DNA from: a virus
DNA: 64,000 bases
Virus genome (UHGV): UHGV-0371537
Direction: 5' to 3' (one strand)
Shown here: positions 31,823-33,751 of the stretch, one piece after another
Layout: the number at the start of each line of letters is the position of its first letter
Position numbering within the stretch: the first letter of the stretch is position 1
Made by a program: the position numbers and the translations under genes
Notes under the pieces: generated by a model
The model's input: the letters and a program-made list of their open reading frames with translations, nothing else
Told to the model about the DNA's origin: nothing
The model's database searches: none

Positions 31823-33751
31823 AATTATTGTGCAACCAACCAAGGACTATCAACCCTTTATCCCGTTTGTGCATGATCAGTTCATGCAGGCCTCTTTGTG
31901 CTGCCTCACGGCATGCGCTTCTGTTGGTCATTGGCTTGCACCGTAGCCTCACAACAGGCGTTTATTTTTCCAGGGCTTTCCACTTGCAAGTCTTAACCAG
32001 ACCGGGATACGGGCTTGCAAGATCGGGTTGGTCACAACTCTGATGGCTCTGAACGTTCTTTTCACTAGTCATCCACAACTGATATTCGGATATCCAGAAC
32101 CATCAGAGTTGCAGCCATGCTACAACCCGCATCTGGGTGAGGTTAAGGTGATCGACCCCAGACACTTGCCTGTTTCGCCAGGCCAAACGGTTTAGCGTCG
32201 GGTGCCTCCCGATGCCATTATCATGGCGAATAATGGCGTTGACTTACCCTCAGGTGTTTCTTTGCCACTCAACCCTTGCGCTTAGCAGGATTCACCAAAC
32301 AACCCGCACTTCAGTGTCTTCGTCACACTTCGGCACTTGTCCTCTACGCTCGGACCAAACGAGGCTGGCCGACAGAAACATAACACCACTCATCACTAGA
32401 GCGAGGATGTGGTTGATAGCCACGATGCTATGCTTTGTCGAAGAGTGATCACACTTGTCAGGATGATCACTGTTTTGCAGTACCTGCCGCAAAGTGGAGT
32501 CCTCTGAACTTCAATGACCCCTCATCTTGTACTATCGCCGCCGGGAACGTTCACATTGTGAATCAACCCTTGGGTTAAGTTCAACGTCCAGAGGACTCTA
32601 CTTTGCGTTGTGGGGGCAAACCCCCACACGGCTACTTCTTTAACAGGGATTGCTAGCCCTGGGGATTCCACTGTTTAAGGCTTTATCCCATAACGCCTGA
32701 GGCGTGTTTTAACTTATTGAAGCTTGCATAACTGCAAACTGATGTGGCTATGGGACACATCTGGGAGGACACTCCGTGGATTCATTTTACAGCATCCCGT
32801 ATAGCGGATACCGACCTCGATCAAGTGCCCTCTCAGATGTCGGCGGGAGCTTATTAATCACACCCTCCCGCCTATTTTTAGTGCGCCGAATTTTGTTATG
32901 AGGAGTCGGAAGACCTCACTGGTTTATAGGCTATTACGCCGCCGCCAGAAATTCATCAGAGTTTGCATTTATCTTTGTGGTCTGTTTCTTAAAACCCGCA
33001 AAGCCGCAAGCAACGAGAACGAAAACCTGTTTGAGCACAAGACGCCATGTCCTGGGATCACATCGAAGTGTTTGTCTAGTGCCCAAACAGCTTTTCGTTC
33101 AGTGGGTTAACTATACTCTGCAACCCGTTATTGACAAAACCTTAAATTATTTCGCGGTGGTCGGAGTCTAACCGACAGCTGGTTGAGCGCAGAGTCCTAG
33201 GAGAAGGTGCTAACCCGACCATCACCAGCAAGCTTCGCACCGGAAGCCTTTCCTCGTCTGCCTATGTTCACACGCAGTCCGTGTGTACACCGCGATATAA
33301 TCTACCGGAACTTACGCATCCAGCCTCGCCTGTTGGTGCTCCTTCGAATCCGGGAAGATCAGCAGGAACTATGAATCAAGTTAATTCAACCAACAGGAAC
33401 CTTTGTGTTGCCCTTTGACGCAACATTATGAACCCTCTATGAAGACTCATAATGTTGTCGGCGTGATGGAGATTAGCGCCCCCCGACCTCCCCTATGTGT
33501 TGGTGTCGACTTGCCAACGGGGTGCTCTCTATTTCTGAGCTAATCACGCTACAACAGGGAGTTTCGTTCTCCGACGGTCAGTGCGTCCACTAACACCATG
33601 CAAGGTGGATGTCACGCCTCTATTCACAACGGTGTCCTGAGACTGGACTTTCCTGGTTTCTGGCCCCAACCATACTTCCACCGCGCTATTCGCCTCACGT
33701 TTAATACTTTACTGCAGTCCAGCTAATTTGAAAAGTCCTCTCCTCTTTGAG

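Follow-up and report, generated by a model that had tools for sequence, protein, structure and literature searches.

Next to the transfer RNA (tRNA) genes of the virus genome UHGV-0371537, from which a stretch of 64,000 nucleotides (nt; hereafter the window) was analysed, lies a segment of about 1.9 kb (31827-33750) that is poor in open reading frames (ORFs) and contains a series of RNA modules of the minus strand. Among them are M5, which resembles the message part of transfer-messenger RNA (tmRNA), and M13, a multi-helix RNA. The window belongs to an Agtrevirus-like phage of the Ackermannviridae, with its best matches (93-95% identity) in pSal-SNUABM-02, Ag3, and SKML-39. A megablast search with 2.1 kb around the region returned 279 phage records at 80-95% identity, which are labelled here as Ackermannviridae on the basis of the listed matches and organism names; they bear out the phage origin assumed in an earlier reading of this DNA made from its letters alone (the original prediction).

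The interval 31780-33955 (2,176 nt) is the longest run without an ORF of at least 100 amino acids (aa) in the 64 kb, and the second-longest run of this kind (27814-29402) is the tRNA island. Five tRNA genes are located on the minus strand at 28341-31126, so the region does adjoin the tRNA island, as had been stated. The ORFs adjoining the region (31117-31779 and 33956-34525) are also both on the minus strand. The same interval is essentially without annotation in Ag3, PhiSH19, RC-2014, 3M, KP6, and UTK0004, and in Menlow it is annotated as seven to nine small “hypothetical proteins”.

The original prediction described the segment as having no ORF of 60 aa or more on either strand. This is inaccurate, as five mechanically called ORFs of 64-78 aa lie inside it (31828-32043, 32212-32448, 32898-33110, and 32977-33171 on the plus strand; 32292-32492 on the minus strand); the narrower statement that 32493-32897 and 33172-33750 are free of such ORFs is correct. 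Both inverted repeats that it quoted exist, with positions shifted by one base: CTGATGG is at 32040-32046 and CCATCAG at 32100-32106, within a hairpin with 17-nt arms (32035-32051 and 32095-32111), and GTGGGGGCAAACCCCCAC is at 32610-32627. Further long hairpins of the region have arms of 27, 22, and 17 nt.

Non-coding character and conservation of the region

The region was aligned to its counterparts in Ag3, pSal-SNUABM-02, PhiSH19, and Menlow, and the mismatches were compared over the codon phases by chi-square. They are spread evenly over the three phases in all four relatives (p=0.16-0.93), and the indels are mostly of 1 nt. The control sequences, ORF 33956-34525 and the gp6 gene, demonstrate a third-position excess with p from 2e-6 to 1e-74. 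The Pfam scan of all ORFs of the region revealed no domain, and the PHROG scan of the same ORFs gave matches solely to small-ORF families of unknown function. The single strong PHROG match (2e-25, also to a family of unknown function) is that of the minus-strand ORF 32292-32492, which we rejected as a real gene because it is frameshifted in Ag3, PhiSH19, and locus L129.

Sequence identity in the region exceeds that of the flanking genes. Its non-coding blocks are 93% identical to those of Ag3 against 83% for the flanking genes, and 82-90% against 75% in PhiSH19; the M5 block reaches 87% against 71% in Menlow, and M13 reaches 93.5% against 75-86% in the Dickeya phage RC-2014. The segment 31827-33750 is not protein-coding and is under purifying selection. 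Since it stands above its flanking genes in conservation, junk DNA and decayed genes are excluded. Its GC content is 0.48-0.52 over most of the length and 0.43 in the 500-nt bin covering its first 170 nt. Three weak two-copy direct repeats were detected, and neither iterons nor an AT-rich tract was found in the region.

At the gathering score, Rfam recognises five tRNAs and nothing else in the whole window, and permissive scans added only sub-threshold matches. The original prediction recommended a search for large non-coding RNAs and introns; with permissive filters, no match to the GOLLD, ROOL, OLE, HEARO, or group I/II models was obtained at E<=10 within 31000-34600, nor did any such family reach its gathering score across the window. 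No tRNA cloverleaf was called by ARAGORN or by Rfam (RF00005) inside 31827-33750. Across the 64 kb, nine sites match the strict T-arm motif, all of them on the minus strand (28018-33176) and none on the plus strand. We read the island on the minus strand because the invariant G.U pairs of M5 (see below), the T-arms, the flanking tRNAs, and the flanking genes all point to this strand.

The region was divided into blocks by BLAST against 13 Ackermannviridae loci, and the blocks were numbered M1-M13 in the 5' to 3' direction of the minus strand. Their presence/absence matrix demonstrates that they are gained and lost independently across genera.

M5, a tmRNA-like message module

M5 (32838-33016, minus strand) is a tmRNA-like message module found as a single copy in the window (nhmmer E=5e-45). 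It is composed of a 5' hairpin, the resume context AUAAAU, a tag frame, a stop hairpin, and two H-type pseudoknots. The frame (...AUAAAU GCA AAC UCU GAU GAA UUU CUG GCG GCG GCG UAA UAG) runs from GCA to GCG at 32966->32937 and, together with the stops (32966->32931), reads ANSDEFLAAA followed by two stop codons; these (UAA UAG, 32936->32931) are placed within a hairpin resembling helix 5 of tmRNA.

Structure and frame were examined in an alignment of 69 distinct sequences. The positions of the structure are 94.7% paired, compared with 33-48% in slid controls, and 15 pairs change on both sides. Pseudoknot 1 covaries (CCGA/UCGG, CCAG/CUGG, CCAA/UUGG), as does pseudoknot 2 (CGCAC/GUGUG, CGCAG/CUGUG, CGCAU/AUGUG), and the helix-5-like hairpin is supported by covariation too. 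Two G.U pairs are invariant, which is why we assign the constraint to the RNA of the window's minus strand. The upstream element is a plain hairpin without covariation, different in Felixounavirus, and neither PK4 nor P2 is present. A diverged M5 of Serratia phage 3M retains the same architecture with other helix sequences and compensated pseudoknots.

The tag frame is open and gap-free in all 69 sequences, with 10 codons and a fixed stop position. Fifteen tag variants, each of 10 codons plus stop, follow the pattern A-N-[DES]-[DEN]-x-[FYVM]-L-x-[AV]-A, ANDDVVLMAA, ANEEMYLAVA, ANDEQFLAVA, ANDNTFLAVA, and ANDNVFLAVA being among them. Synonymous codons are used for Leu7 (CUG/UUG) and Ala10 (GCC/GCG/GCU), and codons 1-2 are GCU AAU in pSal-SNUABM-02 in place of GCA AAC, which is synonymous as well. 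The synonymous share of differences is 0.22 in the tag frame versus 0.02 and 0.07 in the other, stop-rich frames.

Before the resume codon, positions -5 to -1 read UAAAU in all 69 aligned copies as well as in the window; pSal-SNUABM-02 has UAAUC and 3M has UAUCU, so that U-5 and A-4 are invariant in the M5 copies. Their counterparts in E. coli tmRNA are U85 and A86, by which the frame is set (PMC2481249). M5 is collinear with E. coli ssrA over some 70 nt that begin at the end of PK1, include the tag, and reach through the stops. The Rfam model of permuted tmRNA aligns weakly to just this part, and the scores of the tmRNA models are low (RF04321, 18.4 bits with a gathering score of 47; RF01850, 7.4 bits with a gathering score of 84). 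M5 has the hallmarks of the message part of tmRNA without the tRNA domain, and it does not belong to the tmRNAs, as it has no tRNA-like domain and its score is below the threshold.

ARAGORN relaxed to the 80% threshold proposed “permuted tmRNA” calls, which stitch together unrelated flanks or neighbouring tRNAs and were rejected as artefacts. A scan of genome contigs with the 16-mer AAAGATAAATGCAAAC gave chance matches only, none of them in a real tmRNA. Literature searches on phage tmRNA-like RNAs, on non-coding RNAs of the Ackermannviridae, and on ssrA-like elements returned no description of M5 or M13.

Distribution and neighbourhood of M5

A piece of M5 of about 130-190 nt is found at 72-94% identity in phages unrelated to the Ackermannviridae. 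Altogether, M5 is carried by 763 of the 50,697 phage records, and its hosts beyond this family include Felixounavirus and the related Erwinia phages, the T1-like Drexlerviridae (including Webervirus), the N4-like Schitoviridae, and HK620. It is also present in prophages of 137 of the 5,426 complete E. coli genomes. For example, it lies in a lambdoid prophage of E. coli 55989, with the Q antiterminator on one side and the holin on the other, where the PGAP annotation has nothing. From IMG/VR, 120 loci were fetched with a 16-mer, and 78 of them carry M5. Rfam detected only tRNAs in ten M5-bearing loci. At the loci examined, M5 is unannotated or annotated as a “hypothetical protein”, and it is not in Rfam 15.

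Strong sigma70-type promoter sequences (TTGACA-17-TAGATT in Webervirus, TTGACA-17-TATAGT in Felixounavirus) are located 5-8 nt before the conserved M5 start (A/U)UAGUUUUCG, and tRNA-Arg(UCU) follows M5 on the same strand in both genera. In the Felixounavirus HY02, this tRNA gene begins 4 nt past the hairpin that closes M5 and belongs to a cluster of 18 tRNAs. M5 of the lambdoid prophages is flanked by the conserved hairpin ACAACAGGUAAGAGCAUU...AGUGCUCUUUCCGUUGUGG, which we take to be a part of the lambda late leader. Daniels and co-workers reportedly mapped RNase III sites in this leader in 1988, and these sites would fall on the conserved hairpin.

Behind the lambdoid hairpin there are tRNA-like cassettes (GUUGUGGUG...CACCACAAC) with D- and T-like hairpins, for which neither an Rfam match nor an ARAGORN call was obtained in the lambdoid and Webervirus loci. 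Cassettes of about 100-230 nt bounded by GUUGUGGUG...C(A/G)CCACAAC were observed in these loci (L003, 4790-4915; L005, 2765-2905; L014; L028). The loops of the cassette hairpins are complementary to each other and covary (GGCUGAU/AUCAGC versus GGUCGAU/UUCGAC). A second variant of the cassette has canonical D- and T-arms and an insert of about 75 nt in the anticodon region, and the version GUUGUGCUG...CAGCACAAC is found in copies which presumably match lambda's own late leader. There is a larger pool of phage RNA cassettes which accompany tRNAs and have long hairpins or extended acceptor-like stems as their borders, and the island of the window belongs to it.

M13, a multi-helix RNA

M13 (31827-32034, minus strand) is an RNA of about 210 nt located directly 5' of a tRNA fragment. 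It is present in all Ackermannviridae genera sampled, with 78-95% identity. Its fold comprises a closing helix, four to five internal helices, and a GNRA tetraloop, which varies between GUGA, GUAA, and GCAA on a covarying stem. The single strands GUGGAAAGCCCUGGAAAAAUAAAC and CAAACGGGAUAAA are invariant, and the near-invariant CAUGAACUGAUCAUGC is inside a predicted hairpin. A pseudoknot between UAUCCCG and CGGGAUA is possible in the model of the fold.

Seven sequences from six genera were aligned; the resulting fold has 52 pairs, and its positions are 93.4% paired versus 28-38% in slid controls. Nearly half of the pairs (23/52) change on both sides, and none of 500 shuffles reaches the observed value for any of five measures. 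M13 is an RNA without a known relative: no match was found in Rfam even at E<=10. We considered its relatedness to RNase P, as the GGAAAGCCC motif recalls a strand of P4, and rejected it, since there is neither an Rfam RNase P match nor a convincing P4 partner.

Exact matches to an 18-nt signature of M13 are restricted to IMG/VR contigs of 152-161 kb. The first hairpin of M13 was also found in the tRNA cluster of the Klebsiella phage KP13-26 (Stephanstirmvirinae), with 92% identity over 49 nt, which suggests that M13-like RNAs occur outside the Ackermannviridae. In KP13-26 (locus L274, 1347-1563), the hairpin is part of an RNA in a 217-nt unannotated gap between tRNA-Thr and tRNA-Asn, and this RNA has its own closing helix and an interior unlike that of M13.

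Hairpins and predicted promoter around M5

M5 is flanked by duplexes of 17-27 bp with covariation. M4, or I1 (33017-33100), is an 84-nt hairpin with 27-nt arms, 89% complementary, located at the 5' end of the putative M5 transcript. Compensatory changes in its stem were revealed in Kuttervirus and in PC3 (GGGCAC/GUGCUC -> GAGUCC/GGACUC), and its 3' arm (GUGCUC..GGUUUUCG) resembles the sequence which precedes M5 in other phages. M6 (32745-32837) is a long imperfect hairpin (GACAUCUGAGAGGGCAC...GUGUCCUCCCAGAUGUGUC) directly after M5; a folding z-score of -4.0 was obtained for it on the minus strand alone. In lambdoid prophages, Webervirus, and Felixounavirus, M5 is likewise followed by a conserved hairpin, whose position M6 shares. 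M12, or I3 (32035-32111), has 17-nt arms, 94% complementary, and a variable tip. Its stem is retained between Agtrevirus and Taipeivirus through multiple compensatory changes (CUCUGAUGG/CCAUCAGAG versus CUUUGAGGA/UCCUCAAAG), while the identity of the tip falls to 70%; the base of the stem is CAAC...GUUG(UG), as in the hairpins of the lambdoid late leader. No long-range pairing beyond local hairpins is supported in the region.

M3 (33110-33137, minus strand) is a sigma70-like promoter sequence, TTGTCA-16-TATAGT, directed leftward into I1 and M5, with 10 of 12 matches to the consensus. The hexamers are conserved in 12 Ackermannviridae sequences, including that of a Dickeya phage, and the 16-nt spacer is constant in length and variable in sequence, which is why we consider M3 promoter-like. 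The scan with the sigma70 consensus alone was not significant (9 sites versus 8.9 expected).

A gene for an HNH endonuclease is situated exactly between I1 and M5 in pSal-SNUABM-02 (locus L002, 5206-5752, equivalent to about 33015-33027 of the window). It is inserted at the conserved GGUUUUCG motif, and about 13 nt occur on both sides of the insert. M5 of this phage is intact despite the insert, and its tag reads ANDSEVLMAA followed by two stops.

Other modules of the island

M1 (33305-33750) is a conserved block of 446 nt, present in most genera, that contains a tRNA-like cloverleaf (33454-33555) and several flanking hairpins. Its identity over Agtrevirus, Kuttervirus, and Taipeivirus is 77-90%, compared with 71-83% for the flanking genes there, and it has no codon periodicity. 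The cloverleaf has an extended acceptor GUUGUAGCGUGAU / AUCACGCCGACAAC (GUUGU...ACAAC), a D-arm-like UAGCUCAGAAAUAGAGAGCA, and two further arms. The alignment fold of M1 contains 118 pairs, 9 of them with compensatory changes, and the Taipeivirus insertion is placed in a loop.

M2 (33143-33304) is a tRNA-like module of patchy distribution and consists of a 17-bp closing stem (inverted repeat I5), an interior of about 111 nt, and a T-arm that abuts the 3' strand; this arm, GUCGG-UUAGACU-CCGAC (33176), represents the sole T-arm motif of the region. Among the loci compared, M2 was found only in pSal-SNUABM-02, KP6, and one IMG/VR contig. Its site in Ag3 and PhiSH19 is occupied by a different mini-tRNA-like sequence of about 65 nt (GGCGAGG...GUGUGGUUCGAUUCCACAC-CCUCGCC-A), and in Menlow by nothing. 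The T-loop (33160-33176) is UUAGACU in the window versus UUCGAUU in the copy of locus L087, and the KP6 copy is 89% identical overall; the M2 copy of the window may be decaying, or a canonical T-loop may not be needed.

M7 (32608-32744) is the block with the GTGGGGGCAAACCCCCAC hairpin (G5/C5) and is present in Agtrevirus and in one Kuttervirus (UTK0004, 97%). M8, or I2 (32488-32607), is a 120-nt hairpin with 22-nt arms, 91% complementary, and a structured 76-nt interior. Among the loci compared, it is confined to Agtrevirus (Ag3 and pSal-SNUABM-02); its local folding z-scores are -4.4 on the minus strand and -8.3 on the plus strand, and one compensatory pair (A-U/G-C) was detected. M9 (32301-32487) is a conserved non-coding block with a core of about 35 nt, GCCAGCCUCGUUUGGUCCGAGCGUAGAGGACAAGU, at 32335-32369. 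The core has 93-97% matches in Menlow, KP6, RC-2014, A221, and PC3, and is thereby kept in Agtrevirus, Kuttervirus, Taipeivirus, Limestonevirus, and two unclassified Aglimvirinae; it was not detected in the Serratia Miltonvirus. The frameshifted ORF 32292-32492 (66 aa) overlaps this block. The local hairpin of M9 has a compensatory change, GUGU/ACAC -> GCG./.CGC.

M10 (32190-32300) is a partial module resembling the small RNAs STnc100 and PasD, and it is patchy among genera. Rfam RF02076 matches it at 32.9 bits (E=1.2e-4) over model positions 30-148 of 206; as this is below the gathering score of 47 and only partial in length, we speak of a resemblance and not of membership. STnc100 is a prophage-encoded small RNA related to PasD, and both are treated as markers of phage origin (bioRxiv 10.64898/2026.05.13.724894).

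The tRNA fragment at the boundary of the region (31790-31826, minus strand) represents the 5' ~31 nt of a tRNA gene (positions 1-31 of the Rfam tRNA model). It matches the 5' end of the tRNA-Met genes of PhiSH19 and Menlow at 97-100% identity.

Flanking features

Compared to Ag3, the tRNA island of the window has an insertion of about 2.5 kb (29274-31826). Pfam recognises a YadA-like trimeric-autotransporter anchor domain (E=1e-13) in its 449-aa ORF (29403-30752, minus strand); the insertion also contains tRNA-Arg(UCU), tRNA-Met, and the 220-aa endonuclease ORF 31117-31779. The latter matches PHROG 15137, “endonuclease”, at 6e-68, and the Phage_endo_I and NUMOD3 domains below the cut-offs of Pfam. 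The insertion cuts a tRNA-Met-like gene, leaving its first ~31 nt at 31790-31826.

Three T-arm motifs not called as tRNAs (28482, 28207, and 28018, minus strand) are located in the second ORF-poor stretch (27814-28860), together with a 224-nt non-tRNA block (28637-28860, minus strand) whose identity is 97% with PhiSH19 and 93% with Menlow. RNA cassettes of the island are thus probably present beyond the tRNA genes as well. Before the T-arm at 28018, the sequence AAAUGCAAAUAGC bears a faint resemblance to a resume context.

On the opposite side, the 48-aa ORF 33752-33898 (minus strand; orf00219 of Ag3) has a strong Shine-Dalgarno sequence, a hydrophobic N-terminal half (MFYMMLLLILLIGITFTLLG...), and a match to PHROG 8415 (9e-33). 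We take it for a probable small membrane protein, whose gene marks where the non-coding stretch really ends on the upstream side.

Comparison with known systems

The closest comparison for M5 is tmRNA (ssrA; RF00023, permuted RF01849-51, RF04321). Both share a resume GCA preceded by U-5/A-4, a 10-residue tag with an AND, ANS, or ANE start and an AA or VA end (ANDENYALAA in E. coli), and one or two stops in the loop of a helix-5-like hairpin, followed by H-type pseudoknots. Unlike tmRNA, M5 lacks the acceptor stem, the T-arm, and the CCA, and therefore offers no site for alanylation or SmpB binding. It also differs in the absence of the long P2, in having only two pseudoknots downstream and a simple upstream hairpin which varies by phage family, and in its own promoter-like site and length of about 190-220 nt.

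An exhaustive ssrA census found phage tmRNAs only in mycobacteriophages and the Bacillus phage G (Hudson, Lau and Williams 2014, PMC4131195). Like M5, these are phage-borne derivatives of the host ribosome-rescue RNA, and phage DS6A holds one half of it (PMC4131195). However, the known phage tmRNAs are either complete or represented by the tRNA-like half, whereas M5 constitutes the complementary half (message and pseudoknots) and occurs in enterobacterial phages, for which none had been reported (PMC4131195).

By position, the closest classical parallel to the island is the pair rnaC and rnaD (species 1 and 2) of T4. These are small stable RNAs encoded on the tRNA strand straight after tRNA-Arg(UCU) and beside the homing endonuclease SegB, although they are only two RNAs, of 119 and 139 nt. 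No homology to M5 was found by nhmmer in the rnaC/rnaD region. In T4 (locus L276, 1409-1672), rnaC ends in the canonical T-arm CCGGGUUCGAAUCCCGG after ...ACUACUUAAUAA, and rnaD ends in ...GGCGCACCA; judging from these sequences, the ends may be described as tRNA- or tmRNA-flavoured.

The lambdoid late leader (from Q to the lysis genes) is similar to the region in that hairpins occupy the same positions around M5, I3 has the CAAC...GUUGUG stem base, and M10 resembles STnc100. It differs in that the hairpins of the Ackermannviridae have diverged and that the phage of the window is virulent and has no Q antitermination; RNase III cleavage here would be an analogy. GOLLD and ROOL, like the island, have complex conserved folds beside phage tRNA genes, but they have no Rfam match here, and each of them is one RNA, in contrast to the separable modules of the island.

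Interpretation of the island

Comparative alignment, suggested in the original prediction as a check for covariation, revealed compensatory changes in several RNAs of the region (M13, M5, and the hairpins I1 and I3); the modules are patchily distributed, and M5 occurs in unrelated phage families and in prophages. We interpret the region as a polycistronic minus-strand island of RNA genes which continues the tRNA cluster and represents a mosaic of exchangeable cassettes, with the product of M5 acting on host trans-translation. The probability of this interpretation is, in our estimate, about 0.7, and around half of that confidence rests on the favoured role of M5 as a template in, or modulator of, ribosome rescue.

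We suppose that transcription would start leftward at the promoter 33137-33110, and probably also upstream of it, giving polycistronic precursors. By analogy to the lambda late leader, these could be cut at the long hairpins by host RNase III, and RNase P and RNase Z would cut at the tRNAs and tRNA-like cloverleaves, releasing stable small RNAs. Most likely, M5 serves as a template in host trans-translation or acts on this process otherwise, because its tag frame looks selected as a peptide. If the tag is translated, the GCA start and the absence of an in-frame initiation codon imply an entry of the trans-translation type. During infection, M5 could then provide the products of stalled ribosomes with an altered degradation tag. 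This role would fit the frequent linkage of M5 to tRNA-Arg(UCU), the decoder of AGA, which is a rare codon whose shortage triggers tagging by tmRNA. M13, M1, M2, M7-M9, and M11 are candidates for tRNA-like decoys or for processing “punctuation”.

A number of observations weigh against this interpretation. That M3 works as a promoter, that precursors are processed, and that the tag is translated is in each case an inference, and the interpretation offers no route by which a template without an acceptor would enter the ribosome. M5 has no tRNA-like domain (an acceptor stem with G3.U70, a T-arm, and a 3' CCA), and ARAGORN at default settings called a tmRNA neither in the window nor in any of 39 related loci that bear M5. 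The adjoining tRNA-like modules were considered as its acceptor piece and rejected: they have C3-G70 or G3-C70 and no G3.U70, and they are not obligatory, as Menlow has none. The complementarity of M5 to E. coli tmRNA is not above that of shuffled controls, and no conserved partner for its 5' GUUUUCG motif was found within 1.5 kb. The amino-acid signal of the tag is derived from related, non-independent sequences, and a part of the tag lies in a helix which itself constrains the nucleotides. Outside the long hairpins, the minimum-free-energy z-scores from sliding-window folding are unremarkable over most of the region, and the sequence diversity of M7, M9, and M11 is too small for structural testing. 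Finally, the lambda RNase III sites are placed on the lambdoid hairpin only tentatively.

The main rival explanation is that M5 is not translated and represents a decoy or “sponge” which mimics the message domain of tmRNA, titrates a host factor (ribosomal protein S1, RNase R, or, via the upstream sequence, SmpB are candidates), and so damps or redirects ribosome rescue. It is in line with the absence of a tRNA-like domain and of a detectable delivery partner, and with the pseudoknots and loops (UCUUCCGA, GAUUAAUAA) being conserved as strongly as the tag. There is also a precedent: the tmRNA fragment of DS6A, which consists of the tRNA domain only, has been discussed as an inhibitor and may titrate SmpB (PMC4131195). 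However, a decoy needs neither a fixed frame of 10 codons with a fixed stop nor synonymous variation at Leu7, Ala10, and codons 1-2, and the concentration of synonymous differences in the tag frame (0.22 versus 0.02 and 0.07) is not expected from it either. We consider this explanation possible, although clearly the less probable one.

Beyond the favoured role of M5 in trans-translation, a bolder proposal can be made, which we hold only tentatively. M5 may be a phage RNA of a new class, namely a tmRNA template that stands by itself without a tRNA-like domain and is loaded on stalled ribosomes, and by which at least five phage families rewrite the degradation tag added by the host in ribosome rescue; M13 and the tRNA-like cassettes would then belong to a shared pool of RNA genes, with T4 species 1 and 2 as its early examples. 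For this loading, M5 might join either host tmRNA-SmpB or a tRNA-like acceptor cassette encoded separately. The chance that M5 and M13 each form an RNA class not described before is substantial.

The remaining explanations address the segment as a whole. Being contiguous, poor in ORFs, conserved, rich in helices, and located beside tRNAs, its ~1.9 kb might form a single large structured RNA on the scale of GOLLD, ROOL, or OLE; yet the modules are gained and lost independently, a conserved promoter sequence sits in the middle, M5 and the M13 hairpin stand alone in other phage families, no long-range pairing is supported, and no large-RNA model of Rfam matches at E<=10. We regard this as improbable, and the structured-RNA candidate of the original prediction holds insofar as the region is non-coding, conserved above its flanks, and contains strongly covarying RNAs, which are several and not a single large one. 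Still less probable, and very unlikely in our opinion, is an element acting at the DNA level (an origin, a packaging site, or a recombination hot spot), in which the hairpins would be cruciforms or protein-binding sites. Long inverted repeats, the position beside the divergent gene pair 34525/34857 and near the minimum of the cumulative GC skew, and the frequent recombination implied by cassette swapping speak for it. But an invariant G.U pair is an A.C mismatch on the other strand, which makes the constraint strand-specific; pseudoknots and a conserved frame are senseless in duplex DNA; the minimum of the skew falls where the genes change orientation; and the origin or packaging function proposed originally is without support, neither iterons nor an AT-rich tract being present.

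Equally slight is the chance that the segment is a “graveyard” of decayed protein or tRNA genes without a present function. The mechanical ORFs of 64-78 aa, the truncated tRNA at 31790-31826, the mutated T-loop of M2 (UUAGACU versus UUCGAUU), and the insertions of homing endonucleases nearby could be understood in this way, whereas the conservation above that of the flanking genes, the helices maintained by compensatory substitutions, and the absence of residual codon periodicity and of any Pfam match could not. Decayed genes were among the candidates of the original prediction, and frameshifted gene remnants without conserved structure, which it named as the outcome that would speak against a structured RNA, are not what the region contains. 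Its observation was largely right and its idea of a non-coding RNA partly so; the actual content of the region is more specific.

Significance

Phage tRNA clusters are usually annotated as tRNAs separated by “gaps” or by spurious small ORFs. The “gap” described here is the best-conserved DNA of its neighbourhood and contains several clearly covarying RNAs, so annotation pipelines should stop calling hypothetical proteins in such stretches, and in the engineering of therapeutic Ackermannviridae or Felixounavirus phages they should not be treated as dispensable spacers.

M13 represents a family-wide marker RNA of the Ackermannviridae, and the carriers of M5 include lambdoid prophages of pathogenic E. 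coli. Trans-translation is already known to matter for lambda-P22 hybrids. If the tag of M5 is translated, phages intervene directly in trans-translation, which would give a handle on why some of them depend on tmRNA; if M5 is a decoy, it would represent a new type of RNA-based host takeover.

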